Assembly: GCA_963753345.1 (NCBI GenBank)
Contig: CAVWBU010000024.1
Coordinates: 32,001-96,000 of the forward strand
Reading direction: 5' to 3'
DNA: 64,000 nt
DNA from: an uncultured Fibrobacterota bacterium
GTDB lineage: Bacteria > Fibrobacterota > Chitinivibrionia > Chitinivibrionales > FEN-1185
Shown: positions 8,217 to 52,040 of the stretch, in pieces
Layout of the letters: each line of letters starts with the position of its first letter
Numbering within the stretch: the first letter of the stretch is position 1
Made by a program: the position numbers and the translations under genes
Notes under the pieces: generated by a model
What the model saw: only the letters and a program-made list of their open reading frames with translations
What the model was told of the DNA's origin: nothing
Databases searched by the model: none

Positions 8217-8362
8217 TGGGCGCCCCGCCGAAGACGGCGGCGGTTCTCCTTCCGGTCTCGGCCGCAGGCCTCGGGCTGCCACGGCCCTATGGCCCACAGG
8301 GCCGGGTCCGGGCAGCATCCTGCTCTAGCGGGACCTCCAGTCGCCCTTGGCGCGCGGGCAGA
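8217..8362 (+). repeat. Dispersed structured repeat, module A (solo, slightly diverged)
   Basis: tgggcg...cggttctccttccggtctcggccgcaggcctcggg...gcgggacctccagtcgcccttggcgcgcgggcag matches the other A copies. Confidence 0.85.
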
Positions 8363-8469
8363 GGTTGACCTGCCGCGAAATGATTTTTCAAGTCAATAAG
8401 AAAAAGAGAGTTTTGGCATTCTCGTTCTTTTAAAAAGTCAGCGACGAGTTTACAGAAAGGCTGGAGTAT

Positions 8470-8850
8470 ATGCCGTTAACAAGAATATCAATGAATTATA
8501 AGATCACGGACAAGACATCGCTGGTGAAAGATATTCAAAACACGCTTGTCAATGTACTCAAGATACCCGAGCGGGACAGGCTTATTATAGTTGATGAAAA
8601 CCTGGAGGGCTTTTTCCAGCCGCCGGATACCGCCGGGAAGTACGTGCTCGTGGAACTGTCGATGTTCAGCGGCAGAACAAAGGAAACGAAACGGGCGCTT
8701 TACAAATCGCTTGTTGACGTACTGGAAAAGCACGGCATCGGGAAGGAAAACGTCAGGATCGTGATGTATGAAGTGCCGAAGGACAACTGGGGCATTCGTG
8801 GAGGGAAGATGGCGTCGGAGGTGGAGTTGGGGTTTGAGACGGAGAGGTGA
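8470..8850 (+). CDS. Tautomerase family protein (4-OT/MSAD-like)
   Basis: N-terminal Pro after Met; GRTKETKRALY and NWGIRGG motifs. Confidence 0.85.
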   Translation: MPLTRISMNYKITDKTSLVKDIQNTLVNVLKIPERDRLIIVDENLEGFFQPPDTAGKYVLVELSMFSGRTKETKRALYKSLVDVLEKHGIGKENVRIVMYEVPKDNWGIRGGKMASEVELGFETER

Positions 8851-9038
8851 AGGGAAAGTAGGGTTATTTGCGGATAAGAATGCGCGGGTTGCACTAAAAA
8901 GTCGCCGGCGAAAATGAAATATCAAAAGCAAATGACAAGTCCTGTGAAATTATCTATTTTGCTATTTGCAAGGTATCTGACGAAGATCTGAGTGATTACC
9001 TCTCTGTTAAACGAACGCGAGCGAAAGAGGATAATGCC

Positions 9039-9635
9039 TTGGAAAGAAATGTTGTAGATAATGCGAAATTCAATAAGAAGGCGGAATTACCTTTTGAGCT
9101 CAGGCAACAGGATTTTCAAATGGCAATGCAGGATGTGTACGATTTCTTTTATGATGTAAATTCGCACCTATCTAAAAAGGGACTGCAACGACTCGATGAA
9201 ATGCTTCGACCTGCTATAATGTCTGGTGTATTGTCGGACATGATCACTGCAAGCCTAGCCAAGCACTCAAGAACGCTAATAGAAAACCACTATTTTAATG
9301 GGCATCCCGATTTGGTTGTCCAAGGAGTTTACCCTGGCAATTCTATCAAAGCTGGTACAAAGGGTGTTGAGATTAAGACAACTCGAAAAACAGGCGGAGC
9401 AGTTGACACGCACGGCGCTCGTGATCAGTTCATGTGTGTTTTTCTTTATGATGTCGATAACGAAACGGAACCCGCACACGACCGTCATCCGATGACATTC
9501 ACGGAAGTATATATAGGCAAAGTTTCAGTGGAAGATTTCCGAAAGAACCCGCGTGGCGAACTTGGCACTCGCACTGCAACTCTTCACAAAGATGGTATTA
9601 AGAAACTTCGACAGAACTGGGTGTATCGTTTGTAA
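9039..9635 (+). CDS. Putative type II restriction endonuclease (PD-(D/E)xK)
   Basis: HPDL...GVEIKT motif; convergent with and overlapping a DNA MTase; AT-rich island. Confidence 0.6.
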   Translation: MERNVVDNAKFNKKAELPFELRQQDFQMAMQDVYDFFYDVNSHLSKKGLQRLDEMLRPAIMSGVLSDMITASLAKHSRTLIENHYFNGHPDLVVQGVYPGNSIKAGTKGVEIKTTRKTGGAVDTHGARDQFMCVFLYDVDNETEPAHDRHPMTFTEVYIGKVSVEDFRKNPRGELGTRTATLHKDGIKKLRQNWVYRL

Positions 9636-14411: not shown

Positions 14412-14451
14412 GAATGCTCCGCGGAAAGGGATTTTGACAAAGCGGAATGCG

Positions 14452-15859: not shown

Positions 15860-18190
15860 TTACTCTTTCGCCTTGCCTTTGCGGAAAACCGCTGCGCAAT
15901 TGACGCCCTGCGGTGAGCTGAAAACGGTGAGAATATAGTTTTTTCCGCGCCCCTTTTCCAGGGAAGAATCGGCCAGGCCGTGCGAAAGGGCAAACAGTGG
16001 CACCGTGGCTTCCGCGTGCCCGAGCCGGGAGGAAGGATCGAGCCAAGCGGCGTCGCCCTCCCCCATCACGGCGCGGACCGCTTCGGCCCCCCGGCCTATG
16101 CTCGGGCCGCAGCACACTGTCCCGATGTCGGCCGCCGTGATTCCGGCGTTGGCAAGAGCGGTCTTGGCCGTTGCGGTCAGCATCGCTTCACCGCTATCGG
16201 GGTTCATGCAATCCCCGGTTTCCGTGGAATAGGTAACCGAACACACCGTCCCGAGCACCGCGGCGCCGCGCGCCGCTGCGCTTGATTCGGTCTCCAGCAT
16301 CACGGCGCAGGCGCCCTCGCCGTAGGGGACCCCACCGGGCGGGACCACGCCCGCCGCATGCGCGTCGGACAGAATGCGTTTGGACAGCTCGTCCACGCTC
16401 AGGCTCACGATCGCATTCGCGTGACCGTTCTCGATTGCAAACGCGGCAAACCCGAGCCCCATGAGGCCCGCGCCCGGGCCGAAGCTCAGGGTGGTGTTGT
16501 GGCCGGTGAGACGCAGCGCCTTGCATACGTTGCCGGCCACCGAATTCGGCACAACGTACGGAAACGCAGCCACCTGGTTGATGCGGAAATTGCCGCGCAG
16601 GAGCGGGACTATGTGCTCGGATTCTGCCCAGGAAGGGCCTGCGGAAATATGAAGGAACAGCCCGATATCCCTTCGGCCGCCCGGCCGCTCCGCGCCCATC
16701 GCCTGCGAAAGCGCCAGCCTTGTCGCCGCAACCGCGAAGACGCTCGACCTGTCCATGTTGCGGGTGTCGATGCGGCGGTCAATGGCGGCCATGTCGAAGT
16801 CCGGGACCATGGCCGCGCAAACAGCCGCGCCCCCGTCAATGTCAACATCCCGGAAAAGACTTTCAGAAGATTTTACTGCCGCGGCAAGGCGATCAACGCC
16901 CACGCCCGCCGGCGACACCGCGCCGATGCCGGTGATCACCACAGGTCCGGCCGATCCCCTGTCGGGCGGACACCCGGCGGAATCGGGCTTTACTTTTACA
17001 ACAATGCTTGCGTTGTTGCCGCCGAACGCAAAATTGTTCTTGAGCATGGGGCCGGAATCATCCGCGCGTCGGCCCGCGTCCGGGACGTAATCGAGGGTGC
17101 AGCCGTCGCGGCGCTCCGAAAAATGCGCCGTGGCCGGGAGTATCCCCTTTGACAGGCACAGGATGCTTGCCGTTGTTTCGAGCGCGCCCGCGGCCCCGAG
17201 GCAATGGCCGATAATTGACTTTGTGGAACTCACCGGCATCGACGCAGCCGCGGCGCCGAATGTCTTGCGGATCGCCCTGGTCTCGGCCTTGTCGTTGGCC
17301 TCGGTGCCGGTGCCGTGCGCGTTGATGTAGCGAATTGACAATGGCGAAACACCGGCGTCGGCGAGCGCGCGCTCCATGGCAAGCGACTGGCCCGCGCCCG
17401 ACGGGTCGGGCGCGGTGCAATGGTACGCGTCGTTGCTGAGCCCGAACCCGAGGATTTCGGCGTGCAGGGAAGCGCCCCTGGCCTGCGCGGCCTCCATGCT
17501 TTCCAGAACAAGAAACGCCGCGCCTTCGCCCAGGTTGAGGCCGGCGGGCTTTGAAAACGGCGCGCAGGTCCCCTCGCAGGTCGCCTTGAGACCGTCGAAC
17601 CCTGCAAGTGTAGTCTCGGCAAAGGTGTCGCTGCCCCCGGCGACTGCGGCGTCCACAACCCCCATGCGGATGAGGTCGGCGGCAATCCCTATGGCCGCGG
17701 TGCTCGCCGAGCACGCGGTGACCACCGTCGAGCTCGGGCCGGAAATGCCGAATAAATGGGCAAGCGCCTTGGCGCCGGAATAATAGCGAAGCGAGAAGAA
17801 CTCTTCTTTGGTAAGCGATATATCGCCAGCCAGCACGGCCGCATACCGGCGCTCGATGGTCTGCATGGGCCCGCTGCACGTGGCGAACACCAGCCCCATT
17901 CTCGGGCCGAGTTCGCGCGGGTCGAGGTGCGCCCGGTCGAGCGCCTCGCGGCACGCGGCGGCGGCAAAATGGACGAACTTGTCAAGAAAACGTACGTGCG
18001 GCGGCAGGAATGCGCGTTCGTCAAAGTGCCGGACAAGGCCCGCGTGCGTGGCACGGAGATGGGAAAGGTGCGGCCGGCCGATGGGCGAAAACGACGCAGC
18101 GCCCTGCGCCACGGCTTGTGCAAACGAATCGCAGTCGATCCCGGCGCTGCACACCGCGCCCATGCCGGTTACCATTACGCGCCGCCTCAC
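15860..18190 (-). CDS. Tandem beta-ketoacyl-ACP synthase: active KS fused to an inactive CLF-like KS
   Basis: TACSAS, HGTGT and KSIIGH triad in domain 1; domain 2 (VITGIGAVSPAG...) lacks the Cys (LSFGPGAG) and the His motifs. Confidence 0.9.
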   Translation of the reverse strand: MRRRVMVTGMGAVCSAGIDCDSFAQAVAQGAASFSPIGRPHLSHLRATHAGLVRHFDERAFLPPHVRFLDKFVHFAAAACREALDRAHLDPRELGPRMGLVFATCSGPMQTIERRYAAVLAGDISLTKEEFFSLRYYSGAKALAHLFGISGPSSTVVTACSASTAAIGIAADLIRMGVVDAAVAGGSDTFAETTLAGFDGLKATCEGTCAPFSKPAGLNLGEGAAFLVLESMEAAQARGASLHAEILGFGLSNDAYHCTAPDPSGAGQSLAMERALADAGVSPLSIRYINAHGTGTEANDKAETRAIRKTFGAAAASMPVSSTKSIIGHCLGAAGALETTASILCLSKGILPATAHFSERRDGCTLDYVPDAGRRADDSGPMLKNNFAFGGNNASIVVKVKPDSAGCPPDRGSAGPVVITGIGAVSPAGVGVDRLAAAVKSSESLFRDVDIDGGAAVCAAMVPDFDMAAIDRRIDTRNMDRSSVFAVAATRLALSQAMGAERPGGRRDIGLFLHISAGPSWAESEHIVPLLRGNFRINQVAAFPYVVPNSVAGNVCKALRLTGHNTTLSFGPGAGLMGLGFAAFAIENGHANAIVSLSVDELSKRILSDAHAAGVVPPGGVPYGEGACAVMLETESSAAARGAAVLGTVCSVTYSTETGDCMNPDSGEAMLTATAKTALANAGITAADIGTVCCGPSIGRGAEAVRAVMGEGDAAWLDPSSRLGHAEATVPLFALSHGLADSSLEKGRGKNYILTVFSSPQGVNCAAVFRKGKAKE

Positions 18191-21100
18191 GGCCGCACCG
18201 CGCCCGGTGAAAGAACCAGGGCAAAGTTGTAGCCGAGGTCGGTGCTCGCGAGCGCGAGCGCGTACCGAGGCTGCGCAACCTCTCCCCGGTTGTCAAGATC
18301 GGCAATGCCGGTTTTCTGCGGCCACAGCCCCTTGCCGCTCGCCAGGCCCGAAAGCGCGCAGGCGACCGAAACCAGAATGGAGGCAGTCTCTATGTACCCG
18401 GTGTTGAACGTGGTGGCGGCAAGCGGAACGCTTCCGAGGCCGCTGTCTGCAAGCACGTCGAGCACCTTCTTGTCCTGGCCGTTACCTTGCGGCGCCCAAA
18501 TAATAAGCCCGATGTCCCCAAAGCCGATGCCCGCGCGCGACAGCGCGACATCGCAGGCGTGCGCCAGGCCGTCGGGCGCAAGGCTGGGCGCGGAGAATTC
18601 CTTTCCGTCAATGCTCATGGCGTACGACAGCACCTCGGCCAGCACGGGCGCGCTGCGCTCCGCAGCGCACTCCACGGTTTCGAGCACGATTGCGGCCGCG
18701 CCTTCGCCGATCACCTTCCGTCTTGGTTCCGATATGTCAAGGCGGTACTCATCCTCGGCCGCGCCCTGCTTGAGGAACCCAATGAGGTCGTAATTGTAAA
18801 ACATCTGGCCGTAGATTTCGTCGGACGCGGCGGCCAGCATGGCCTTTGCGCGGCGCTGGCGCAGCGCGTTGAACGCGTAGGCCACGCTTGCCAGGCCCGC
18901 GTGCGGCCCTGGCGCCACGGTCATATTGACGCCCTTGAGGCTCAGCGCATTGGAGACCCAGCCTGCCGTGGAGTTGGCCGTGATGTTCGAGAAGCAGTTG
19001 ATGTGCGGCTCAAAGGTGTCCGATTTGAAAACGCTGTTCATGTGGTCCGATTCCGGCGGGCCGTTGCACACGCCCATCACGATGCCCGCGTCGTCGCAGT
19101 TCTTCTGGCCCACGCGCAGGCCCGCGGCCTCGAGCGCAAGCCGCGAAGCTGCTGTAGCATACCTGCTGATGGCGTTCATTTCCGAAAAATCAAGCCTCCG
19201 ATCCACGTCCGCCGCGGAAAACAGAGGCACCAGTCCCGCCCGCTTCGACGCGGCGCCGGGGTGCCCCAGCCGGTCTGCCGGCCCGATGCCCTTCTCGCCC
19301 CGGCGGAGCCGCTCGAGCGTTTTTTCGACCCCAAGCCCCAGCGACGTCACCGTGCCCGCTCCGGTAATCACCACGCGGCTGAGGTCTCGCTTCCGGGGCG
19401 GAAGCGCAAAGTCCCATTGCGTGATGCAGGCGGCTGCGTTGTTGCCGCCGAAAGCGTAATTCGCGGAAAGAAAGGCGCTGTACCGGGCGGGGCGCGCCGC
19501 ATTGGGAACATAGTCGAGCGTGCAGCCGGGCCGGGGCGAAGAGAAATTGAGCGTCGCCGGGATAAACCCGTCGTTCATCGCAAGAAGGTTGCAGGTGGCC
19601 TCAAGGATGCCGGTGGTGCCCATGCAGTGACCGAAAAACGACTTTGTTGACGTAACAGGAATCTGCGCCGTGCCGCAGAACTTGGCGATGCCTTTGGATT
19701 CCGCGCGGTCGTTGGCCTCGGTGCCTGTGCCGTGCGCGTTGATGCAGCCGATATCGGCCAGCGCGATGCCCGCGTCGGCGAGCGCTCCCGCGAGCGTTTT
19801 GGCAACCCCGTCGCCGCGCGGGTCGGGCGATGTGGGGTGGTAGGCGTCCGAGGTGAGTGAATGTCCCGCCACCTTCGCGTAGATGCGCGCGTGCCGGAGC
19901 AGGGCCTGCTCCAGGTCTTCGAGCACCCAGAACACGGATGCTTCCCCTATGTTAAGTCCTACGGGCAGGGAAAACGGCGCGGTTTGCCCGGTGGAAACCG
20001 CCTTGAGGCCGTTGAACCCGCTCACGTTCGCCACGCACAGCGAATCCGATCCGCCTACCACCACCGTGGAAAACAGCCCGAGGTTGACAAGCGAGGCCGC
20101 AAGCCCGATCGCGCCGGTGGTCGAGGAGCACGCCGTGGTCACGATCCAGATTTCGCCGCCGATCCCCAGCGCCCGCGACAGGGCCTTGCCGAACCCGTAA
20201 TACTGCGCCTGCAGATTCATCTTCTCGTCGAACACCCTGCTGCCCTTGGCGTGGAGCCACTTGTACTCCTCTTCGGCCGAACGGAGCCCGCCGTTGCAGG
20301 TGCCGAGCACGAGCGCTATGTCGCGCCTCGCCTGGCCGGGCTTCCACGAAAGGCCCGCGTCGGCGAGCGCGGCACGCGCGGATGCCACTGCATACAAAAG
20401 GTACCGGTCGTCGTATTCGGCGATTTCGTCTTTGTCAAGATACGCGCCCGGATCGAACCCCTTTATCTCGCCGCCCAGGTTGGTGCGGAAATGACGCGCG
20501 TCGAACTGGGTGATCGGCGCGAGGCCGTGTTTCCCTTCCCGCAGCGCCCTGAGAATCGCCCCAATGCCGTTGCCGATGGGGCTCAGCGCGCCGATGCCGG
20601 TTATCACCGCCTGCCCGCGCACGCCCTGGCGCGTTAGCGGCTTGCCCACCACCTTGCGGCCGTCCTTGAACGTGGACGGCTCAAGGCTTGCCGTATGCGA
20701 ATCCTTCTGACGCCTGAAAAAGGCGTTCCAGATGCCGATGAATTCCCGGTACAGCTCGTCCCGTGTCATGTTGAGCGGCTCGAACACCACGTGCGCGCCG
20801 TTGTAATGCGACCAGTTCCTGTCGACGATGCGGTTCTGGCGTTCGAGCCTGTCCCAGTGCACCGAGCCGGGGTACGGCGTAAACAGGAAGAATTCCGACG
20901 TGTGGATGTTTGCCTTGTCGAACAGGTCGACCACCCTGTCGCCGATGCCGGGCCCGTCCCAGTCGCGTCCTACGGCGCACGAGCCGAAGAACCTTATGTC
21001 GTGGTTGCCAAGTTTCTTGACAAGATCGAAAAGCATCTGCCGCTCTTTGGCCTCGCCGGCGAGCGCCCGTATCGACACAGGGTCGACGTTGAGCGTGCAG

Positions 21101-21936: not shown

Positions 21937-22009
21937 GGGATTTGTACCAACATTAAGTAAAAATAACCCATGGAGAATTGATAGAAGACATGAAAAACAT
22001 CCTATTGGC

Positions 22010-22483
22010 GGGGGAGGTTTCCCCCTGCCTGCGGCCGCCTCCGGCGTCCTCCGTCACCCCCTCCTGGGTGCACCCCAAGAGAGGGTCGTTGCAAGAGTCA
22101 AGCTTCGGTTGGGGGGCACCCGTGGAGAGTAGTTGTACCGAGCACTTTTCTTTCTCTGTCTCTTTGTCACTTTGTAAGTTTCTGCCTGTGGCGGCACCCA
22201 AGGAGAGCAGTGGGAAATAGAGCCGTTGCAAAGTTGAGTAATTGTAATGTTGACAACAGGGAGGAAGCCAGGCCAATCTTTTGCGAATGCTAATTGGCGC
22301 AAGAAAAAGTAATTGGCTGAATAGAATTTCCCATGCCGCGCGTTAGGCAGGACTGGAAAAATGGTCCCGCTTGAGGCGGGATGCTGCCTGACCACGGCCC
22401 GCAGGGCCCTCGTGGCAGGCGGCCCGAGGCCGAAGGCCGAGACCGTAAGGACGGCCGACCCGAGCGCAACGAGGGGAACGCCA
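22010..22483. repeat. Composite structured repeat: module B (+, 22010-22130) and module A (-, 22334-22483)
   Basis: gggggaggtttccccc...ctcctgggtgcaccccaag...ggggggcacccgtggag, then tgccgcgcgttagg...gaggggaacgcca. Confidence 0.9.
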
Positions 22484-25362: not shown

Positions 25363-25412
25363 AATCATCCCATTTATTCCCCTAAAATGACTGCGCATTG
25401 CTGATGCCACCG

Positions 25413-25567
25413 CTCTCCTCGGGTGCCCCCGCAACAGAGTATGGTTTTGCAACCACCCTTTCTTGGGGTGCACCCAGGAGAGGGTAGCGGAGGACCGGCG
25501 CGCGGTTGGTAGCGTGAAAAAAGACGAGAGCGCGCGCCGGGCCGCAGCGAGGGGGAAACTTCCCCCC
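25413..25567 (-). repeat. Dispersed structured repeat, module B (solo)
   Basis: Reverse strand ggggggaagtttccccctcgctgcggcc...cctccgctaccctctcctgggtgcaccccaag...gcgggggcacccgaggagag. Confidence 0.88.
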
Positions 25568-25691
25568 ATGAATACTCTTCATTTTTAATTTTCTTCATCA
25601 CCTGACTCCAAACTTTTCCTCTCAATATCTTCCCCTTACCCCTGTATCCTGTTATATTTTACCCCCTACCGAAAACCGGGAGAAAACAAAC

Positions 25692-29070: not shown

Positions 29071-29214
29071 TGGGCGTTTCCCTCGCTACGCTCGGGCCGG
29101 TCTCCCTCCGGGCTCGGCCTTCGGCCTCGTTGCCGGATCGCCCTATGCCTATCGGCCGGGTCGACCGGCAATCCCGCTATGGCGGGACCGCTCCGGTCCA
29201 CCTAACGCGCGGCA
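29071..29214 (+). repeat. Dispersed structured repeat, module A (solo)
   Basis: tgggcgtttccctcgctacgctcggg...tcccgctatggcgggacc...cctaacgcgcggca. Confidence 0.9.
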
Positions 29215-29304
29215 AGGGGAATCTGTTTTGTCAAGAAGTAATATTTGCGCCGCAAGGAATTATCATGGATAAGCACATATGAGTCCTTACTTATTAGTCA
29301 TTGA

Positions 29305-33752: not shown

Positions 33753-34273
33753 TTTATCATGTCCTTTTCGATTAACCCGTTTGGCCGCCCCGCCACGACT
33801 GCGGTCTATTTTTTAGAGTGCGCCATGGTCTTATTAATTCTATTTATATTCTTGGGCGGCGGTTAATAATATCATTGGTTAAAAATAATTGGCTTCAATT
33901 TCACGTTTCCCAGCACAATTCCCACCATTTACGCCCGCCAGAGTGCCGTTTTAAATTGTCTTTTGTCTTGTTATATATTCCTTTTTATTCATCGCCCAGG
34001 ATGGGCGATTTCTCGCCTTGCAAAAGAACAGGTATTATTCAGTAACCGGCATATTCAATATTTCCCTAAACTTCCAAACATATTATGCTGTCTTGCCATA
34101 ATGTCCACCATGTCAACTTCCCTTCGCTTGCCGATCCTGCAACCGCCCATGTCCACCCTTCAGAAACTAGATATTCCCTGTCCTCAAAAGCAAATCCCCC
34201 GTCCTCTTGGTCAAGCAATGTACCGTCCTCCCGAATGAAACAGAAACGCCGCGGCTCTCGGGACCGCGCCAAC

Positions 34274-39062: not shown

Positions 39063-39100
39063 GATTCTATTCCTTTCCTATTTATTAATACCAAAAAGAT

Positions 39101-39517
39101 TGGGCGTTCCCCTCGCTTTCGCTCGGGTCGGTTCTCCTTCCGGTCTCGGCCGTTCGGCCTCGGGCCGCCACGGCCCTATGCCGCGAGTACGCGGCCGGGT
39201 CCGGGCGGCACCCCGCTATGGCGGGACCTCCAGTCGCCCCTAACGCGCGGCAGAGGAATTCTATTAAGTCAACTCCTTCTTCTCGCGCCAATCCAATTGA
39301 CCTCACCCCTATCCCCTCTCCTAATGGAGAGGGGCACGGACATGCTATGGCCCCTTCCAATTTTCGCTCGTGGGTGCCGCCGCAACAATGTATGGTCTTG
39401 CCGCTGCTTTATCAAGGCGGCTACCCAGGAGGGGGTAGCGGAAGACCGGCGCGCGATGGACGATGGGAAATAAATGAAAATAGCGCACCGGGCTGAAGCG
39501 AGGGGGAACCTTCCCCC
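39101..39517. repeat. Composite structured repeat: module A (+, 39101-39252) and module B (-, 39367-39517), with nested CCCCTCTCC hairpin
   Basis: tgggcgttcccctcgct...cagtcgcccctaacgcgcggcag; cccctctcc-taat-ggagagggg near 39313-39334; tgggtgccgcc...ggaaccttccccc. Confidence 0.92.
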
Positions 39518-39544
39518 ACCAAATATTTATTGGCATATCCTGGT

Positions 39545-40930: not shown

Positions 40931-40941
40931 ACTGATCCCTC

Positions 40942-42054: not shown

Positions 42055-42114
42055 AGGAGATGGAAAATACCTTGTGAGGGAAAACCTTGCAAAGGCATTC
42101 CGCAGTCGCGGCCG

Positions 42115-43842
42115 TCAACCGGGCCCGTTGCCGGCTAGAGGTACCCTGTATCGCTCCGAATTGACGGACGGCGCGATTTCCCCGTCGTCAAAGCCGAAGG
42201 AAACCGTACACCGCCCGCGGTCCGGCTTTTCAAGGGGAATCACGGCCTCCACCGTTCTTGCCGCGTGCGCGCCGATGCTGTCGCGGGCCGACAGTTCCTG
42301 CGCAAGGACCGTGCTGTCTTTCCCGGCGTCTTCACGATGAAGAACGCAGACCAGCCGCACGGGCTCTCCATAGCTGTCGCGTGCAAAAGTCAACGGTGTG
42401 CCGCGATGGTTGACGATTTCCAGGGACACGCTCTCCCCGTCCTGCGCCGGGAGCCTGCGGCGCATGGTCTTCAGGGTGATCCGGATGTCCAGGTAGGACG
42501 CAAAATGCCTGATCGACACGTAGTTTATCTCTTTGCCCATCCTCGTGACCAATCGCGTGCAATGCCTGTTCCTGCCGTACTTGACAAGCGTGACATCGCG
42601 TCCCTGGATGCCGTCTTCCGCCCCGCGTATCTCGTATTCCGATTTCTTGTTCCCGCCGGGATAGAGCGCGATCCCCTGCATGCCGGAGTAGAACGAATAC
42701 AGCGGAGCCTCGCGGAGCTGGCTCTCAAACACCACGGGGCTTCCGCCCGCGACGCCGCGGATGTCCTGCGCCCACTGCTCTCGGCCGTGGTAGAAATCGA
42801 CGTTGTTGAAGGTGTTGACGGGAAGGATTGGAAAAGCAAGATAGGTCCTCAGAAAAAGGACGAACAAAAGCGGGGGAACAGACAGCCAATACAGAAGCAT
42901 CTTTCTTCTGCTGCCATAGTATGAACAGCCAAGGATGATGAGGGGCATCAGCGCAATCGACGTCCAATGGAATTGCACATAACCCTTAAGGGTCGCAAGG
43001 CAGAAAAACGCCAGCGTGCCGATTGCGATGAATTTGAGCGCCCGCTCAAAAGCGTCCTTGGTTTTATAAATGAATGGAACGAATACAAGGGCCGGGCCGA
43101 GCACAAGGGGCTGCACCCCGAGAAACTCGGTGAGAAAATCGATCCTAAAGCCGCTCGACCGCCCCACCAGATGATACTTGAACGAGACAAAGTCGTGGGT
43201 GTACTGCCACCAGAGGTGAGGGACAAACATGACAAGGGCGATGCCGGCCGCGAGCATGAACTTCCTGTTACGCAACAACGACAGATTAGACAGGACAACG
43301 AAAAGGATAAGAAGAATCGCATGATACTTGGCGTATAGCATCAGCCCGAGCACGAGTCCCATTGAAACGCCCGACGCATAATCATCCTTTTCAAGGAACC
43401 TCTTGTAGCAATAGAGAAATACCGCCGACAGCGCAACCAGCGGCGTATCCGGGAACACAATGAACGTGAGATAATTGAAGAGCGGCAGTGACAGAATTAT
43501 CAGGTACGGATAGAACTTCCTGTTGATTTTATCGCCGAGCAGCTTCAGGAGAAAAAAAAGCCCGATGCAGACGAGCGCCACATTTACAATCCGGACTCCG
43601 AGCTCGCCCGGAAACAGGCGGCATCCCAGAGCGATACACAGCGGGAGAAGAGGAGGATGATCGTAATATCCCCAATCCGCATGGGACGACAAATACCAAT
43701 AGTAACCTTCATCGCTCGTGAGCGTAGTGAGGGAGGCCTGGACGATGTTCAGAAGGAGATACAGGAGAACAAAAAGAAGCGGCAGCGACTGCGGCGGAAT
43801 TGCTTTGAGCGAAAAACCGGCGGGATTTCTTAACAAGCGCAC
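42115..43842 (-). CDS. GT-C glycosyltransferase (family 39/ArnT-like)
   Basis: DEGYYW...WGYYDHPP, PDTPL and AKYH motifs; multi-TM. Confidence 0.85.
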   Translation of the reverse strand: MRLLRNPAGFSLKAIPPQSLPLLFVLLYLLLNIVQASLTTLTSDEGYYWYLSSHADWGYYDHPPLLPLCIALGCRLFPGELGVRIVNVALVCIGLFFLLKLLGDKINRKFYPYLIILSLPLFNYLTFIVFPDTPLVALSAVFLYCYKRFLEKDDYASGVSMGLVLGLMLYAKYHAILLILFVVLSNLSLLRNRKFMLAAGIALVMFVPHLWWQYTHDFVSFKYHLVGRSSGFRIDFLTEFLGVQPLVLGPALVFVPFIYKTKDAFERALKFIAIGTLAFFCLATLKGYVQFHWTSIALMPLIILGCSYYGSRRKMLLYWLSVPPLLFVLFLRTYLAFPILPVNTFNNVDFYHGREQWAQDIRGVAGGSPVVFESQLREAPLYSFYSGMQGIALYPGGNKKSEYEIRGAEDGIQGRDVTLVKYGRNRHCTRLVTRMGKEINYVSIRHFASYLDIRITLKTMRRRLPAQDGESVSLEIVNHRGTPLTFARDSYGEPVRLVCVLHREDAGKDSTVLAQELSARDSIGAHAARTVEAVIPLEKPDRGRCTVSFGFDDGEIAPSVNSERYRVPLAGNGPG

Positions 43843-44063
43843 AAAAAAGCCCTCACGTCGTTTCTCTGCAAGTCAATCGAATATAATTCTTCGCCGCCCG
43901 GATTCTTGTAGGGAAACAGGGCGAAGGACCGTGTCGCGGACCGCTCGCGGCTGTTGAGTGGGCGCGGCCCGCGAGCTATATTCTACCCTTCGTTCATTGC
44001 CAGGGGATTTTTTTTCAATCCCGTACCGGTGCTCATCCACCCTTCACCCAAAAGGACCTCTTC

Positions 44064-44576
44064 ATGACGCAAGCATCCTCCCTCACCGCCTCAATCAAGA
44101 CCGAAAAAGGCGCCATCCGTCTCAATCTGTTTGCCGACAAGGCGCCGCTCACGGTCGCCAACTTCGTGAACCTCGCCAGGCGCGGGTTCTACAACAACCT
44201 TAGATTTCACCGCGTGATTGCCGACTTCATGATCCAGGGCGGGTGCCCCAAGGGCAACGGCACCGGCGGGCCCGGGTACAAGTTCCGGGATGAATTTGTC
44301 AAGGACCTGCGCCACGACAGGCCCGGCGTCCTTTCCATGGCCAATTCCGGACCCAACACCAACGGCAGCCAGTTTTTCATCACGCATGTGCCGACGCCCT
44401 GGCTCGACGACCATCACACCGTGTTCGGCGCGGTGACCGGCGAACAGGACATGGCGGTTGTCAACAGCATCAAGTCGGGAGACAGGATCGATGTGATTGA
44501 GATCGAGGGCAACGCGGAGGGGCTGCTCAAAGAGCAGAGGGAGGATGTGGAGAAGTGGAATAAAAAGCTGGGATAA
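44064..44576 (+). CDS. Cyclophilin-type peptidyl-prolyl isomerase
   Basis: [31 protein letters not shown] and [10 protein letters not shown] motifs. Confidence 0.96.
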
Positions 44577-44586
44577 GGAAAAAAAC

Positions 44587-44793
44587 TGGGCGTTCCCCCG
44601 CTTCGCGGGGTCGGTTCTCCTTCCAGCTCGGCTGGTCAGCCTCGTTGCCGGTCCGCCCCTAGTCGCGTTCACGCTTCGCGCCCTCCGGGCCGCCTGCGGC
44701 GGTGGTCTCCGCGCCTTCGGCGCTCCGGCTCGGCGAGGGGTCGGCCGGCAATCCCGCATTGGCGGGACTTCCAGTCGCCCCTAACGCGCGGCA
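44587..44793 (+). repeat. Dispersed structured repeat, module A (solo, with ~60-nt internal hairpin insertion)
   Basis: First 80 nt identical to the copy at 46570; ends ccagtcgcccctaacgcgcggca. Confidence 0.92.
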
Positions 44794-44941
44794 ACAGAGC
44801 TCTTTTCCGTCAAGTTTCAATAATTGCGCCATCCGGAATTCTCACCAAATAATTCGGAATCACCCCTTCAACACCATCCGTCAACTGTCAACTATATTGA
44901 CTTCGCTCATTGGTGCCTCTTGTCAAGGCCGCATCAACCGG

Positions 44942-46395
44942 TCATTTCATCAACGAAATCATCTTTTCCTGATGTTCCTCGCCCGCTTTGAAGACGACCA
45001 GATATGCGCCTGCGGCAAGCTTGCCCCGTTGCATGCTCAATGAATAATTCCCGGCATCCTGATGCTTGTTGACAAGTTCGGATTGCAATTGGCCATTGAT
45101 ACTATACAGCCGCAGGGAGACATGCCCGGCTTGGGGAATTGAATAGGCGAACTTAACTAATGCGCATTTGCAACTGCTTACCTGCAAACCGGCATGCTTT
45201 GCGGTTGATGACGCTGAGATGGGTTGGGTCACAAGGGAAGGGGAAGTGCTATCGAACTGGGCGAAATAGGCCTGACCAAAACCCTGGCCTTCGCTGGCGA
45301 ACAACCCTCCGGCATATATCGTTGATCCCTTCACGGCGAGTGAATAGACACCGCCAGGTAAGTTCGGTTTCCAAGCTAAGACAGTCCCTGCTGTCCCATC
45401 CAAGGCTGCCATATCGGAGCGGGTCTGCCCGCCAATGCTGTCAAAGAGCCCCCCGCATATATCGTTGTCCCGCTCACAGCGATTGAATTGACAATGCAAT
45501 AACTGGCGGGATAGTAGAAATGCCGAAATGCATTCGGGTTCCAAGCCAATGCATTCCCTGTTGTCGCATCCAATGCAGCAATATAGTTGCGGTTCTGCCC
45601 GCCAATGTTGGTGAAGCGCCCTCCAGCATACACTGTTGTCCCGTTCACGGCGAGTGATTTGACCCAGTAGTCCGCATTTGGGTTCCAGCTCAATACATTA
45701 CCCGTTGTCGCCTCCAAGGCCGCGATATAGTTGCGGGTCTGCGCGCCAATGGTGTTGAAGGCTCCTCCTACGTATATCGTTGTCCCGCTCACCGCGAGTG
45801 AATAGACACCGTCGCTCGCATCCGGGTTCCATGCCAGGGCATTCCCTGTTGTCGCATCCAATGCTCCTATGTTTTTACGGCTCTGGCCGCCAATGCTGTC
45901 GAACAAGCCTCCTACATATACGGTAGTCCCGCTCACGGCAATAGACAAGACATCGCTTATTAAATTGCCGTTCGCATTCGGGTTCCAGCTCGTTGCATTC
46001 CCTGTTGTCACATCCAGTGCGGCGATATGGTTGCGTCTTTGCCCGTCGATGATGGTGAAATCCCCTCCAGCATATACTGTTGTCCCGCTCACAGTGAGTG
46101 TTTGGACACCGCTGTTTGCATTCGGATTCCAGGCCGTGGGTTCCCCCGTTGTCGCATCCAAGGCTGCGATATTGTTGCGAACCACACTGTGAATGGTGTC
46201 GAAGACCCTGTCGAAGACCCCGCCGATACATGGCCCAACCCGAGTAAAATTCCCTCCAATGTAAACTTTGTCCCCGGCGGGCGCAATCGCAGAGACCGGG
46301 CCATTGGTGACCCATGTGTTCTGGTTGCACGTGTCCGACGGCAAGGCCTGCAGGAGCGCTGCGAGGGAAATGATAATAAGAGCCATCTTTTTCAT
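44942..46395 (-). pseudogene. Beta-propeller-like repeat protein with T9SS-like CTD, frameshifted at a G6 run
   Basis: About 6 repeats of RN.IAALDATTG...WNP.A...V.SLAVSGTT.Y.GG.F; the frame switches at the C run 45449-45454 (G7 would restore it); C-terminal LYSINGQL...GAYLVVF. Confidence 0.75.
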
Positions 46396-46569
46396 AGCGT
46401 CCTCCTTGCAGATGATTTTAGCAAATCGTCGCTTTCCGCATTTGACCATTCCTTCCCTATTCAATAATATACAGTATATACCTTTTTGTCCACGGCAATA
46501 CAACACCCTGCCGAACAAAGCGGTTTCTGCCAGAAAACACCCCTCGCAGCAATGAAGAAGAAAAGAAAT

Positions 46570-46935
46570 TGGGCGTTCCCCCGCTTCGCGGGGTCGGTTC
46601 TCCTTCCAGCTCGGCTGGTCAGCCTCGTTGCCGGTCCGCCCCTAGTCGCCTTCGGCGAGGGGTCGGCCGGCAATGTGCTCCGGCACACTTCCAGTCGCCC
46701 CTAACGCGCGGCAGAGGAAATTTCTTCAGTCAATTGTTATTTCTTGCGCCAGCCGAAATTTTCAAGGAGCAAATCATTGTTTTCTTCTTGAACTTCTCAA
46801 CTACTCTCCGTGGGTGCCCCCACACCAAGGTATGATTCCACAGCTATCTTTTCTTGGGGGCCACCCAGGAAGGGGTAGCGCAGGACACCGCAGGCCGAAG
46901 GCCGAGGAGGCCGGAGCTAGGGGGATACCTCCCCC
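46570..46935. repeat. Composite structured repeat: module A (+, 46570-46713) and module B (-, 46804-46935)
   Basis: Same conserved blocks as the other composites. Confidence 0.92.
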
Positions 46936-47094
46936 GCAGAGCAGCTTTTCTCCACTTTCTAATTGAAACTCTTACATTGTCAAAATCCCTCCCCATCCAG
47001 CTTTTGACATTCAATAATGTATATTCCTAAGATTGTAGCATCTGCCTCTTATCTGCAAACATGTCGACGTAAAGGTCCCGGGAAAGGGAACCCC

Positions 47095-48405
47095 ATGAAG
47101 GACATAAACATAGGCCTGGTCGGCGCGGGAGTTGTGGGCGGCGGGGTGGTTAAGATGCTGTCCCAGAAGGCGGCCTATTTCCGCGAAAGCCTGGGTCTTC
47201 CGCTTGTCCTTAAGCGGATCGCAGACAAGGCCGCCAACCGCTTCACGGAGCTGCCGGTGGGCACTGCGGTGTGCACCGAAAATGCCGATGATATCCTGAA
47301 CGACAAAGACATTCAGATTGTGATCGAGCTGGTCGGTGGGACCGCCTTTGCACGGTCTCTCATCACCTCGGCGGTCTCGAAGGGCAAGCACGTGATCACC
47401 GCGAACAAGGCGCTTATCGCGGAATGCGGCCCGGAACTTTTCCAGCTTGCCGAAAAGAACAACGTGTCCATACTCTTCGAAGCCGCGGTGGGCGGCGGCA
47501 TGCCCGTGATAAAGACCATCCGCGAGGCCCTGCTTGCCAACGAGATCACCATGGTGAAGACCATCATCAACGGCACCTGCAATTACATCCTTACGCAGAT
47601 GGCCGACAAGGGCCTTCTGTTCGACACCGCGCTCAAGAAGGCGCAGAAGGCCGGCTTTGCCGAGGCCGACCCGACGCTCGACATCGGCGGCGGCGACAGC
47701 GGCCACAAGGTGGCCATCATGGCCTCGCTCATCCACGGCGGGTATGTTCCCCTTAACAAAGTGTACATCGAGGGCATCACCAATATTTCCAAGGAAGACA
47801 TCACCTTTGCCCAGGACCTGGGATACTGCATAAAACTGCTCGGCATCATCCGGAAGACCCAGGGCGACGACCGCGTTGATGTGCGCGTGCACCCGGCGAT
47901 GCTCCATCGCAAGCACATCCTGGCCTCGGTGGGCGACGTGTTCAACGCGGTCCTCCTCGAGGGAAACGCGGTGGGCGCCACGCTCCTGTACGGCCGCGGC
48001 GCGGGCGAACTGCCCACGGCCTCAGCCGTGGTGAGCGACATCGTGGACGTTGCGAGGAACATCTCGTCCGGCGCGCCGAAGCGCATCCCCATGAGCTACT
48101 ACCGTCTTGACAACGAGATAAAAGTGAAGCCCATCGGCGAAGTGGTGTCCCGGTACTACCTGTGCTTCTGGGTGTCCGACAAGCCGAAAGTCCTGGCGTC
48201 CATAGCGGCCGTGCTCGGCAATTATTCCATCTCGATCGCCTCGGTGCTCCAGAAGGAGTCCACCGAGGAAAGCTGTGTGCCCGTCATCTTTCTCACCCAC
48301 AAGGCGGTGGAGAAGAACATGCGCGACGCGCTCAAGGAAATCGAGACCATGGAGTTCATCAAGAAGCCGACGCACGTGATAAGGATAACGGGGCAGACGT
48401 ATTAG
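47095..48405 (+). CDS. hom: Homoserine dehydrogenase with C-terminal ACT domain
   Basis: GAGVVGGG, TANK, EAAVGGGMP, INGTCNYIL, AEADP, GRGAG..PTASAV and DKPKVL motifs. Confidence 0.96.
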   Translation: MKDINIGLVGAGVVGGGVVKMLSQKAAYFRESLGLPLVLKRIADKAANRFTELPVGTAVCTENADDILNDKDIQIVIELVGGTAFARSLITSAVSKGKHVITANKALIAECGPELFQLAEKNNVSILFEAAVGGGMPVIKTIREALLANEITMVKTIINGTCNYILTQMADKGLLFDTALKKAQKAGFAEADPTLDIGGGDSGHKVAIMASLIHGGYVPLNKVYIEGITNISKEDITFAQDLGYCIKLLGIIRKTQGDDRVDVRVHPAMLHRKHILASVGDVFNAVLLEGNAVGATLLYGRGAGELPTASAVVSDIVDVARNISSGAPKRIPMSYYRLDNEIKVKPIGEVVSRYYLCFWVSDKPKVLASIAAVLGNYSISIASVLQKESTEESCVPVIFLTHKAVEKNMRDALKEIETMEFIKKPTHVIRITGQTY

Positions 48406-48413
48406 GATTTTTG

Positions 48414-48508
48414 CGCCTCACCCTTTCCCCCCCACCCCCTCTTCCCCTCTCCACTCGTGGAGAGGGGAAGAGGGGGTGGCCGACAGGCCGGGGAGATGAG
48501 GTGAGGCG
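48414..48508. repeat. Long purine/pyrimidine-segregated palindrome (REP-like)
   Basis: Perfect arms ccaccccctcttcccctctccac / gtggagaggggaagagggggtgg inside outer IR cgcctcacc/ggtgaggcg. Confidence 0.8.
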
Positions 48509-48549
48509 AACGAAAAAGCAAATTTCACTATTAACCAGAATTTGTCATC

Positions 48550-49896
48550 ATGAATAAACCACATCTTCGTCCCTTCGGCAAAAGCGACAAAACCTACCCC
48601 ATCACCGACATCAGATACCGCAGCGACGACGGCCGCACGCTCGAGGTTGACAATTGCATCGCTCCCATGGACGCAAGAAAAGCGTCCGCGCTGCGCGCAC
48701 TGTTTGACACAAGGCTCATGTCGCGCAAGCCCCTTGACAGAAGCGGCGTATGGCGCTACCGGGAGTTTTTGCCCGCGTTCAAACCGTATGGCGGCGTGGT
48801 TACCATGGAAGAAGGCAACACTACGATTTTCGACATGCCGAAATGCGCGGCGTTCTGCGGCATTGATTCTCTTTTTGCAAAGCACCAGGGGCTCAACCCG
48901 ACCGGCTCGTTCAAGGACAACGGCATGACCACCGCTGTCACCATGGCAAAAAAGCTCGGCGCGACCATGGTGGCGTGCGCGTCAACCGGCAACACCTCGG
49001 CCTCCATGGCCGCGTACGCGGCGCGCGCGGGCATGAAGAGCATCGTCTTTATCCCGGACGGCCAGATCGCGTACGGCAAGCTGTCGCAGTCGCTCGACTA
49101 CGGCGCGCTTACCATCCAGATCGCGGGCGATTTCGACAAGGCAATGGAGATCGTGGAAAGCCTGTGCAACCGCGGAAAAATTTATCTGCTCAATTCGATC
49201 AACCCGTTCCGCATCGAGGGACAGAAGACAATCATGATCGAAATGCTCCACCAGCTTTCGTGGAAAGCGCCGGACTGGGTGATTGTTCCGGGAGGGAACC
49301 TGGGCAACTCCAGTTCGTTCGGGAAGGCGTTTGACGAAATGGTGCGGGCGAAGTTCATCAAGAAGGCCCCGAGGATCGCGGTGATCCAGGCGCAGGGCGC
49401 CAACCCGCTGTACAACAGCTTCGTGTCGGGCGACAGAACGCTGCATCCGGTTCACGCCGACACACGGGCGACCGCCATCAAGATAGGAAATCCTGTAAGC
49501 TTCGACAAGGCGGTGTTCGCGGTGGATTCCACCAAAGGCACGGTGGAACAGGTTGACGAACAGGAAATCGCTGCGGCCAAGTCCTTTATCGGCAGGGACG
49601 GCGTGGGGTCCGAGCCCGCCTCGGCCACCACGGTGGCGGGCTGCAGGAAACTTGTCGGAAAGGGAATTGTCGGGAACTCCGACAGCGTGGTGTGCATCCT
49701 CACCGGCCATCTTCTCAAGGACCCGGACTATACCGTTGAATTCCACAGGGACGAACTGTATCTTGACGCGCAGCGAAACACAACATTGTCCGGCACCAAG
49801 CGTATTTCCACCGGCGGGTTGCATAATAAACCGGTGAAGCTTCCCGCGGATGAGAATGAGATTATAAAGTATATAGATTCGTGGGCGAAGAAATAA
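48550..49896 (+). CDS. thrC: Threonine synthase
   Basis: NPTGSFKD (PLP Lys), CASTGNTSAS, NSINPFR.EGQKT and PGGNLGN motifs. Confidence 0.95.
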   Translation: MNKPHLRPFGKSDKTYPITDIRYRSDDGRTLEVDNCIAPMDARKASALRALFDTRLMSRKPLDRSGVWRYREFLPAFKPYGGVVTMEEGNTTIFDMPKCAAFCGIDSLFAKHQGLNPTGSFKDNGMTTAVTMAKKLGATMVACASTGNTSASMAAYAARAGMKSIVFIPDGQIAYGKLSQSLDYGALTIQIAGDFDKAMEIVESLCNRGKIYLLNSINPFRIEGQKTIMIEMLHQLSWKAPDWVIVPGGNLGNSSSFGKAFDEMVRAKFIKKAPRIAVIQAQGANPLYNSFVSGDRTLHPVHADTRATAIKIGNPVSFDKAVFAVDSTKGTVEQVDEQEIAAAKSFIGRDGVGSEPASATTVAGCRKLVGKGIVGNSDSVVCILTGHLLKDPDYTVEFHRDELYLDAQRNTTLSGTKRISTGGLHNKPVKLPADENEIIKYIDSWAKK

Positions 49897-49912
49897 TAAT
49901 AGTGTTCTTGGT

Positions 49913-50394
49913 GGGGGAAGTGTCCCCCTAGGGTGCGGCTTCCGTCGCCTCCTTGATAAATGCAAAACCAGAAAATCCGGAGGCGACGGCGATCCGCACC
50001 CATACCCCCTCGTGGGTAGCCCCCAAGAAAGCTGATTTGCAAGAAAGAAACATCGGCTGCGGGGGCACCGAGAAAGAGAGTTGAATAGTTGAGAAGTTGA
50101 GGAGTTGAAGAAGATCAAAACAAATTGGTGATCTTTTCTTCGAGAATTCAAGCTGGCGCAGAAAAAGGACGTGGCTGAATATATTTCATCCTGCCGCGCG
50201 TTAGGCAGGACTGGAAAAATGGTCCCGCTGATGCGGGATGCGCCCTGACCGCGGCCGGAGGGCCTTTGTGGCAGGCAGCCCGAGGCCGAAGGCCGACGAC
50301 CCTTGTGACCCTTGGAAATCCCTGGCGAGGGAGAAGCACCCGAAGGGGTGGACCGGAAGGAGGGCCGACCCGAGCGTGGCGAGGGGAACGCCCA
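49913..50394. repeat. Composite structured repeat: module B (+, 49913-50080) and module A (-, 50191-50394)
   Basis: gggggaagtgtccccc...tacccc...gggtagcccccaag...gggggcacc; 8-mer agttga repeats in the spacer; ctgccgcgcgttagg...gaggggaacgccca. Confidence 0.9.
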
Positions 50395-50424
50395 TCTCTA
50401 TTTGAAAAGGAAAAAGGATTAACG

Positions 50425-51616
50425 ATGAAATATATAATATTAGTAGGCGACGGCATGGCCGACTTCCCCATCCCCGAGCTTGACAACCGCACACCGCTCG
50501 AATACGCCAGGACCCCGAACATGGACGCAGTGGCGAAGGCGGGCCGCGTGGGGCTCGTAAAAACCGTTCCCGACGGTGTCCCGCCGGGCAGCGACGTGGC
50601 CAACATGTCGCTTATGGGATACGACCCCGTGAAGTACTATTCCGGCCGCGCACCTATCGAGGCGGCGAGCATGGGAATCGCGCTTGACAAAACCGACGTG
50701 GCGTTCCGCTGCAACCTGGTGACGCTCAAGTGCGGGCTCATGGAAGACTATTCCTCGGGCCACATTGAGACGCCGGACGCACACGAAATAATTGCTGCTT
50801 TACAGAAGGAACTCGGCGCTCCGGCCGTGACATTCCATCCCGGCGTGAGCTACCGTCACCTCACCGTGATTTCTCATTTCCCGGATGGCAAGCTCGACTG
50901 CACGCCGCCGCACGATATTTCCGGAAAGGCCTACGGGGAACACCTTCCCTCGGGGTGCGGCCAGGATATTGTCCGGCGCCTCATGGAGGATGCCCGGCCC
51001 GTGCTTGCCTCCTCGCCCGTCAACAAACGGCGCGAAGCGCAGGGAAAAAAGCCCGCCACCGACATCTGGCTGTGGGGCCAGGGAAAGGCCGTGTGTGCTG
51101 CCCACGATGAAGGAACGGTTCGCGATTTCCGGGTCCGTGGTTTCGGCGGTGGACCTTGTGCGCGGCCTTGGCGTGCTGGCGGGACTCAACGTGCGCATCG
51201 TCCCGGGCGCCACCGGCTACCTCGGCACCAACTACGCCGGCAAGGTCGCGGCCGCCCGCGAGGCCCTTGCGAAAGAGGACTTCGCGTTCGTGCACGTGGA
51301 GGCGCCCGACGAGACCTCGCACGAGGGCGACCGCGAAAAGAAACTGCAGGCCATCGAGGAGTTCGACAAAAACGTCGTGGGCGAGGTGCTCAAATTCCGC
51401 GAAACATTCCCCGATCTCCGGATCATGGTGCTCCCGGACCACGCCACGCCCCTGTCGCTCAAAACCCATCACGCCGCGCCGGTTCCGTTTGCCGTGTGCG
51501 GAAAAGGCGTTGATCCGGACGGCAGTCTTGCGTATTGCGAAAAAGCCGCGGTTGGGAAAAAGATGTATACGGGAGTGACGCTGTTTGAGACGTTTATAAA
51601 AGGCAAATTTGAATAA
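50425..51616 (+). pseudogene. apgM: ApgM-family cofactor-independent phosphoglycerate mutase / proposed homoserine kinase, with +1 frameshift
   Basis: GDGMAD, GSDVAN, SYRH, PPHDI and WLWGQG in one frame; SAVDL, HVEAPDE.SH, PDH and TH in the next. Switch at gtgtgtg 51091-51097, probably an assembly error. Confidence 0.85.
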
Positions 51617-51636
51617 TAATAATACAATATTTTTGT

Positions 51637-52040
51637 GGGGGAAGTATCCCCCTCGCTCCGGCCGTCTCCGGCGTCCTCCGCTACCCCCTCCTGGGTGACC
51701 CCCAAGTAGGAGTAGTTGCAAGAATCAAGCACCTGTGTGGGGGCACCCACGGAGAGCAGTGAAATAGTTGAGAAGGCGAGACAGTAGAGAAGCTACAAGA
51801 TAAAACGTTGTTTTACTCCCTGGGGAATCCGGCTGGCGCAAAAAGATTGTTCTTGACAGAATGGATTCCTTCTGCCGCGCGTTAGGGGCGACTGGAGGTC
51901 CCGCCATAGCGGGATGCTGCCTGACCACGGCCCGAAGGGCCCTCGTGGCAGGCGGCCCGAGGCCGAAGGCCGAGACCGGAAGAAGAACCGACCCTTTGTA
52001 GAGCCGCATAGCAGTGCGGCTCTACAAAGGGGAACGCCCA
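51637..52040. repeat. Composite structured repeat: module B (+, 51637-51760) and module A (-, 51872-52040)
   Basis: Same conserved blocks; the terminal A hairpin is replaced by a perfect 17-bp stem. Confidence 0.92.

Follow-up and report, generated by a model that had tools for sequence, protein, structure and literature searches.

The stretch of DNA considered here (the window: the whole 64,000 nucleotides (nt), contig C24:32001-96000) belongs to a metagenome-assembled genome (MAG) of the phylum Fibrobacterota, 4.52 Mb in 55 contigs and 94% complete, called G000 below; the stretch is present in metagenome runs from peat, sediment and soil, with no RNA run among those listed. Its intergenic regions carry many copies of two structured modules, A and B, which the initial annotation had read as one large REPIN- or BIME-like element mobilised in trans, or else as a multi-copy structured RNA. 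The account favoured here, which on balance is probably the right one, separates the two: A and B would be distinct families of GC-rich, multi-hairpin repeats, without genes of their own, that together form a REP/BIME-like mosaic in the intergenic DNA of this uncultured genus of Chitinivibrionales. From the first description, the abundance of structured intergenic repeats and the BIME-like architecture stand; the single element, and its mobilisation by a RAYT protein, do not.

Copies were called with nhmmer profiles built from those in the window. All of the eight A and six B copies reported before were recovered at their positions, with no extra ones, as were the five A/B composites; three copies of A and one of B stand alone (Table 1). 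Chance is excluded as a source of these matches, as the counts are far above expectation: the 14-mer CCTAACGCGCGGCA at the 3′ end of the A core occurs seven times with at most one mismatch, against 0.06 expected in shuffles, and the first hairpin of B has nine strand matches against 0.16. All copies in the window are intergenic, as had been claimed, in either orientation relative to the genes; ‘intergenic’ is approximate here, because the genes were called by codon usage with a home-made program, the modules being masked. The window contains no transposase, again in agreement with the earlier description.

The forecast of hundreds of copies per genome was accurate. The whole genome gives 400 matches to A (365 at E<1e-10) and 287 to B (269 at E<1e-10); profiles of a second round find 406 A and 282 B, which make up 2.4% of the genome. 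A copy of B lies within 600 nt of 202 of the 400 A copies, and 199 of these 202 pairs share the predicted inverted arrangement: B stands beyond the tail of A and on the other strand, at a median gap of 96 nt. The spacer is narrow (interquartile range 82-118 nt in 136 composites). About half of the A copies and ~88 of the B copies stand alone. A single large contig of the MAG, C40 (93 kb), is devoid of both A and B, which could mean that it is a plasmid, foreign DNA or the product of mis-binning.

So regular a layout invites the idea of a single non-autonomous transposon, a miniature inverted-repeat transposable element (MITE) or REPIN, with A and B as its ends, the ~400-bp composite being copied whole by an enzyme in trans. 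In its favour are the 199 composites with their fixed inverted layout and narrow spacer, the outer ends, which both start with TTGG after an A-rich run, and sites at which the composite is present or absent as a whole, as at 49906-50394 (present in G000 and G004, absent from G005 and G003). The history of the parts tells against it. Among the 136 composites, distances between A parts do not predict distances between B parts (Mantel r = -0.02; 430 of 500 permutations were at least as high), and between composites that are nearest in A the distance of the B parts is 0.319, compared with 0.321 for all pairs. Many copies are single, the modules differ in taxonomic range, and neither a parent element nor a Y1 transposase nor a target duplication was found. 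A composite copied whole, as a single MITE or REPIN, is thus rejected because its A and B parts are not co-inherited, and we regard this explanation as very improbable indeed; the rejection is strong, not absolute, as exchange between copies could erase co-inheritance.

Comparison of sites leads to the same place. The relatives compared, G001 to G005, are of the same genus as G000 (six species in all); G003 is 99% complete and the most diverged. As expected if the modules are mobile, sites differ in presence and absence between sister species, with empty sites in G003 as an example; a clean empty site with a target duplication was looked for in vain. A lone A or a lone B replaces the composite at the same site in G001, in G005 and in the strain contig C4, and at the junction of 39357-39524 G001 has a different B variant. 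Each module is gained and lost by itself, and the notion of A+B as one element falls with this result. One B copy in a relative is interrupted: locus L018 (4380-5722, the same place as window position 49928) carries a 1.34 kb insertion sequence (IS) inside module B, ~24 nt from the head and after the first hairpin. It encodes a 369-aa transposase (DUF772 + DDE_Tnp_1) and may target the repeat.

Orthologous copies are mosaic in build; at 51858-52040, for instance, a unique first hairpin is common to G000 and G001, which differ in the variant of the main hairpin. Small contigs in the MAG duplicate parts of large ones at 80-99.9% identity (C4/C5 and C16, C44/C45 and C46, C54 and C32, C55 and C15, and others). 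In these strain-variant contigs, whole intergenic cassettes are replaced between flanks that are 97-99.9% identical; C54 and C32 agree at only ~70-75% across a composite, and the 478 bp of C16 that include A correspond in C4 to B plus 58 bp. The replaced cassettes and the mosaics together argue for frequent exchange between copies and for insertions and deletions, not for clean cut-and-paste.

On the account of two separate families, then, A would have multiplied in the ancestor of five species after G003 had split off, and B would descend from an older family that spans the phylum. Copies would now be mostly inherited vertically, and reshuffled by exchange with other copies, by deletion and by the occasional new insertion. 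Each module would settle independently and in a set orientation, beside a central A-tract sequence (AGTTGAAAAG-type) or beside the other module; such settling would yield the fixed tail-to-tail layout of A and B with no copying of the pair as a whole.

Module A, oriented from TGGGCG to GCGCGGCA, is 150-170 nt long: a closing helix encloses at least four hairpins, and a conserved tail of ~60 nt follows. The closing helix pairs GCGTT with AACGC or, in ~80 copies, GCGCC with GGCGC. Inside, the first hairpin varies and is followed by a conserved GGTTCTCCTTCCGG stretch; three more hairpins come next, a short one with GGCC, a long one in three parts and one that pairs CCCGC with GCGGG. In the tail lie a conserved TTGAC motif and a TTGCGCCA motif. 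Inserted hairpins vary widely between copies. Since sub-families shift the register, structure was assessed on covariance-model alignments; for A, the model covered the 3′ 102 positions, and 150 further genomic copies were aligned to it. Pairing is found in 94.1% of 3111 cells, against 34.7-45.9% with the partners slid; 17 of the 21 pairs have changed on both sides, and the observed score was reached by none of 500 shuffles. There are 523 two-sided changes and 13 one-sided ones in the 3111 cells, counts that overstate the number of independent events, because the alignment was fitted to the model and the sub-families are related. The predicted fold energy averages -79 to -82 kcal/mol.

Module B is ~150 nt long. 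Its 5′ hairpin (GGGGGAAGTNTCCCCC) is followed by a TCGCT box and a second hairpin, whose length varies; next come a CGCTACCCC box and, on the 3′ side, a long hairpin with imperfect pairing. In both modules an A-rich run precedes the outer end, or ‘head’. The order along a composite is thus A-run, A with its tail, spacer, reversed B and T-run. Anchored profiles, made from 240 heads of A and 231 of B, have no sequence in common other than the TTGG that follows the A-rich run. The spacer contains phased A-tract units of the AGTTGAAAAG type. Tandem units resembling AGTTGAA(A/G)AG are conserved beside the inner end of B throughout the genome, and are no part of B, as G001 has the array at 49906 without a B.

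The spacers contain other repeats as well. The spacer of composite 39101-39524 holds a small hairpin repeat of its own (window 39297-39336), CCCCTCTCC..GGAGAGGGG, after which GGGGTGAGG often stands; the repeat recurs in many other spacers of G000. Beyond the genus it has many copies in G006 and is found also in G033, G016, G012, G020 and G007, and in these six genomes it is the only part of the query matched. A third dispersed repeat, GTCATTGCGAGCG..GCGAAGCAATCT, lies in several spacers of G000 beside lone copies of B. The intergenic DNA of G000 is a patchwork of at least four kinds of repeat. At the empty sites of G003 (L059, L064), runs of CTTTACT/CTTTAAT-like heptamers stand immediately upstream of start codons, in the places where other species carry modules and AGTTGAAAAG arrays.

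The two modules have very different ranges. Among 151 sampled genomes of the phylum, from 54 genera, the A model matches five genomes of one genus (G000, G001, G002, G004 and G005). G003 has neither A nor B by BLAST or by either covariance model, so that A probably expanded after G003 had split off. For B, phylum-wide BLAST matched the first 60 nt in other genera; in distant genomes the B-type element is ~100 nt long and multi-copy, with at least 45 matches in G100, for example. A set of 26 copies from outside the genus aligns into three helices with conserved boxes; pairing is 86.5%, against 49-64% with the partners slid, and seven of 18 pairs have changed on both sides. The B-type model R1, built solely from 26 out-of-genus copies, recovers all six B copies of the window (E from 2e-15 to 2e-3) and matches A only once, weakly (29059-29189, E=0.02). 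In the same sample of the phylum R1 matches 98 of the 151 genomes and 31 of the 54 genera, including 53 of the 55 sampled genomes of family f13, which accounts for about half of the phylum genomes available; many genomes have at least 26 copies.

B is best filed as a member of an undescribed phylum-wide family, and A as genus-specific. Rfam 15 has no match at the gathering score in the window or in locus L121 (best E-value 0.11 over window 49880-52070, and 1.5 over a Fibrobacter-type copy), which leaves the claim of novelty standing on that count; full-text searches of the literature found no intergenic repeat family of Fibrobacterota. Five viral-classed contigs in IMG/VR (L177-L181) carry complete B-type elements, three of the five with a long insertion in the second hairpin; the A pattern has no match among the IMG/VR viral contigs. 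A phage vector is not shown by these five.

Conservation on this scale opens a second perspective, tentative but serious: that the modules, and B above all, are cis-acting elements kept for a function, their number resulting from recruitment and not from selfish spread. They might be RNA structures of the 3′ untranslated region or between cistrons, which stabilise, terminate or insulate transcripts; they might also serve as binding platforms for a conserved host protein. The boxes and helices of the B type are kept in the genomes and genera just listed, often in at least 26 copies each, and five species have kept an A copy at a shared site. The sense bias of B and the nearness of its head to stop codons, given below, speak for this view too; the position of both modules relative to genes also counts for the favoured account of a REP/BIME-like mosaic. 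Modules favour the regions behind genes, and one orientation. In convergent regions there are 115 copies of A where 61 were expected and 74 of B where 44 were expected. The head of A faces a gene start 184 times and a gene end 183 times, the head of B 89 and 177 times; the median distance from head to stop codon is 30 nt for A and 22 nt for B, and from head to start codon ~80 nt and ~87 nt. In the 138 co-directional regions with B, its forward strand is sense in 103 and antisense in 35; for A the reverse strand is sense in 116 and antisense in 67. The predicted folds are very stable; on the favoured account too, the modules would fold so in the RNA of neighbouring genes, which makes an effect on transcript 3′ ends plausible. 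In the B-type motif, three C-rich segments compete for one G-rich segment, an arrangement that could allow alternative folds.

Several properties fit poorly with such a function. A quarter to a third of the copies are in the other orientation; G003, of the same genus, has none, and the modules are thus dispensable; the inserted hairpins vary widely. Module ends lack the signature of a hairpin plus U tract, the terminal helices being separated from T-rich runs by 4-8 nt. An intrinsic terminator is not supported, as no hairpin at a module end runs directly into a U tract; terminator-like sites in 38000-53000 numbered 16 in a scan, with 18 expected, and there was no terminator or promoter pattern recurring at modules or heads. 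Nor is there an excess of G-U pairs on either strand: the B-type alignment has 16 G-U and 26 A-C, and base-pair statistics of the A and B-type alignments single out neither strand. Standard pairs have been swapped for standard pairs with almost no G-U intermediates, which on the favoured account suggests that the constraint on folding would act on the DNA or on both strands.

A narrower form of the functional idea, which we think unlikely, takes the B type alone as the functional, phylum-conserved structured motif and A as its genus-specific partner, acting either as an RNA module at 3′ ends or as a docking site for a conserved protein or RNA-guided enzyme. As a 3′-end module, the three C-rich arms that vie for one G-rich arm might set the ends or the stability of transcripts, a version we doubt to the same degree. 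As a docking site, also unlikely, it would have the merit that the same protein or RNA-guided enzyme could account for the spread.

Alternatively, the modules could be genes for small RNAs, or for RNAs that act as guide or scaffold in an RNA-dependent system not yet recognised; transcription would then run outward from the spacer and end at the T-rich runs. Of 205 A copies, 154 fold more stably as the reverse strand, and of 230 B copies 171, the difference being 3-4 kcal/mol; both reverse strands run outward from the spacer toward T-rich flanks; the fold of A is complex, with several helices and conserved unpaired stretches, and its tail has a conserved TTGAC motif and a TGGCGC motif. A promoter in the A tail was tried and dropped, as the spacing of these two motifs fits neither sigma-70 nor sigma-54 and nothing recurred in the scan for promoters and terminators. 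The genome has no TnpB-type domain, Y1 transposase or reverse transcriptase, and the G-U signal is not strand-specific. The copies number several hundred and are diverged, and we know of no RNA gene family that approaches this. RNA genes are accordingly quite improbable.

If A and B are repeats that have spread, some enzyme should have moved them. Profile searches of G000 gave no match to Y1_Tnp (PF01797), TnpB-type (PF07282) or RVT_1 domains, in a MAG that is 94% complete and with PF07282 as the only profile for TnpB/IscB; control genomes were positive for PF01797. G000 has one IS110 gene, at a contig end (C16), and neither module lies near it. Across 296 phylum genomes a Y1 transposase is present in 155, and the flanks of 22 Y1 loci (~1.5 kb where the contig allowed, E<=0.1) contain no match to A, B or the B type; five genomes (G000, G001, G025, G030 and G053) each have at least 10 B-type matches and no Y1. 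Mobilisation by a RAYT-type enzyme, the REPIN route proposed at first, is therefore without footing in these genomes. Six identical copies of a 144-aa Y1 transposase were seen in G002, in four loci (L168-L171) as an IS200-like unit of ~550 bp; there is no A or B within 1.5 kb of these units.

These searches for PF01797, PF07282 and RVT_1 domains weigh against the favoured account of two spreading families, and a number of other observations join them. A gene-carrying A..B copy was not found: 13 A..B pairs are 350-8000 bp apart with no module between them, and the four with 1.4-2 kb between modules enclose genes for secreted proteins (CarboxypepD_reg-like, Ig-like, Exo_endo_phos and OMP-like) and no transposase. 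Terminal inverted repeats are absent, the outer ends sharing only TTGG. The only clean junction (49906-50085, with the B core present in G000 and absent from G001) allows a repeat of at most 2 bp; other filled and empty sites are too diverged or are replacements. Median identity to the nearest neighbour is 91% for A and 85% for B, and only four of 215 A copies have a neighbour at least 97% identical, two of the four being the overlap of contig ends; there is thus no sign of recent transposition. In four public DNA runs no contig spans an empty site: contigs stop at the repeats, repeat bins are up to 35x deeper than their flanks, and the joints link different copies. Being strain variants, the duplicate contigs make the bin a composite of a population and push raw copy counts up a little. 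Orientation counts and gene calls depend on a crude caller. Finally, selfish repeats seldom show the phylum-wide sequence conservation and 3:1 sense bias of B, for which a conserved function is the better fit.

Among known systems the nearest are REP and BIME, known from E. coli and other Proteobacteria, and REPIN of Pseudomonas: all present hundreds of GC-rich, hairpin-forming intergenic copies. REP and BIME are likewise enriched behind gene ends and between convergent genes, and BIME likewise combine two types of repeat, inverted around a short A/T-rich linker, in single and paired forms and independent combination. The differences are as plain. A REP is a single palindrome of 20-40 nt, whereas the modules here are 150-170 nt with at least four helices; in a REPIN one unit occurs twice, inverted, whereas the partners here are different families of different range; one module, moreover, is conserved across the phylum. 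RAYT genes of REP and REPIN systems are flanked by repeats, and here the genome lacks a Y1 and no repeat-flanked Y1 was found. The linker of BIME binds IHF or another nucleoid protein; the phased AGTTGAAAAG-type A-tract spacer may be its counterpart, an analogy that is suggestive only.

A second group comprises BOX of Streptococcus pneumoniae, ERIC/IRU of enterobacteria, Correia of Neisseria and bcr1 of the Bacillus cereus group. These are 100-200 nt long, have strong predicted folds and high copy number, and are intergenic; the boxA/B/C build of BOX is comparable to the A and B modules. Terminal inverted repeats and target duplications mark Correia and bcr1 and are not seen here. None of the four is known to extend beyond a genus or family, whereas the B type occurs in 31 of the 54 genera sampled. 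To our knowledge, the mobilising enzyme is unknown for several families of this class. IS200/IS605 derivatives (PATEs) and the omega/reRNA scaffolds of TnpB have unlike hairpin ends, without terminal inverted repeats or target duplication, and a structured segment of ~150 nt at one end that abuts the flank, in all of which they resemble the modules. They differ in that G000 has no Y1 or TnpB-type domain, that the B-type-rich G025, G030 and G053 have no Y1, that neither module occurs in the IS200-like units of G002, and that the ‘ends’ A and B are not co-inherited.

One species without these repeats beside five with hundreds is a natural experiment, which could expose a spreading enzyme or host factor that is not a RAYT. 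The B-type motif is a candidate for catalogues of RNA families, and testable if a cultured species carries copies; if it is functional, it would be an unusually widespread cis-element. There is a practical side as well: repeats that fill 2.4% of the genome break short-read assemblies at every copy, and so limit the quality of MAGs in this peat and soil lineage.

Table 1. Modules A and B in the window, the adjoining tandem array, and the state of module sites in G000 and its relatives
Feature	Position in window	Strand	Evidence or state
Module A, lone	8217..8364	+	nhmmer E=1e-26; compensatory closing-helix variant GCGCC/GGCGC
Module B (composite 22004-22482)	22004..22137	+	nhmmer E=4e-28; R1 E=1.6e-9
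Module A (composite 22004-22482)	22321..22482	-	nhmmer E=2e-30
Module B, lone	25406..25573	-	nhmmer E=4e-36; R1 E=4e-11
Module A, lone	29071..29228	+	nhmmer E=9e-31
Module A (composite 39101-39524)	39101..39267	+	nhmmer E=2e-35
Module B (composite 39101-39524)	39357..39524	-	nhmmer E=3e-35; R1 E=2e-11
Module A, lone, long insertion in main hairpin	44587..44807	+	nhmmer E=9e-23
Module A (composite 46570-46940)	46570..46728	+	nhmmer E=3e-28
Module B (composite 46570-46940)	46797..46940	-	nhmmer E=1e-32; R1 E=4e-9
Module B (composite 49906-50394)	49906..50085	+	nhmmer E=4e-30
Array of AGTTGAA(A/G)AG-like units, adjoining inner end of B	50074..50113	+	Tandem Repeats Finder: period 8, 3.9 copies
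Module A (composite 49906-50394)	50176..50394	-	nhmmer E=1.5e-26
Module B (composite 51630-52040)	51630..51762	+	nhmmer E=2e-34; R1 E=2e-15
Module A (composite 51630-52040)	51858..52040	-	nhmmer E=3.5e-34
Site history	39101-39524		A+B in G000, G001, G002, G004; no module in G005 (240 bp); empty in G003 (55 bp)
Site history	44587-44807		A in G000, G005; B+A inverted in G001; in G002, gene 42115-43842 unmatched, with partial B and A matches in its place
Site history	46570-46940		A+B in G000; B alone in G001; no module in 1.5 kb upstream in G005; none in 1.5 kb beyond gene in G003
Site history	49906-50394		B+A in G000; A alone in G001, B core exactly missing; B+A in G002, IS inside B; B+A in G004; empty in G005 (78 bp); empty in G003
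Site history	51630-52040		B+A in G000, G002, G004; A alone in G001, G005; empty in G003 (89 bp)

Some features of the window lie apart from the modules. A 144-bp tandem repeat at 45295-46212, with at least 4.4 copies ~70% identical, is inside a minus-strand open reading frame (ORF; 45376-46518), which would thus encode a protein with repeated domains; the region downstream of this repeat differs in G001. At 15860-21936, repeats spaced 2417 and ~1236 bp apart lie in two long minus-strand ORFs (776 and 1249 aa), which may stem from the duplication of a multi-domain (synthase-like) gene. Stretches of 155 and 300 bp at 34609-35849 recur 777-780 bp downstream, at 79% identity, in the minus-strand ORF 34333-36285. 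The gene that follows composite 49906-50394 (window 50266-51616) is matched by relatives from ~50425 to 51610; in the window it runs over two reading frames instead (ORFs 50266-51513 and 50885-51616), perhaps through a frameshift or an assembly error. A 2-kb stretch at 32001-34000 has 40% G+C, against a window mean of ~57%.

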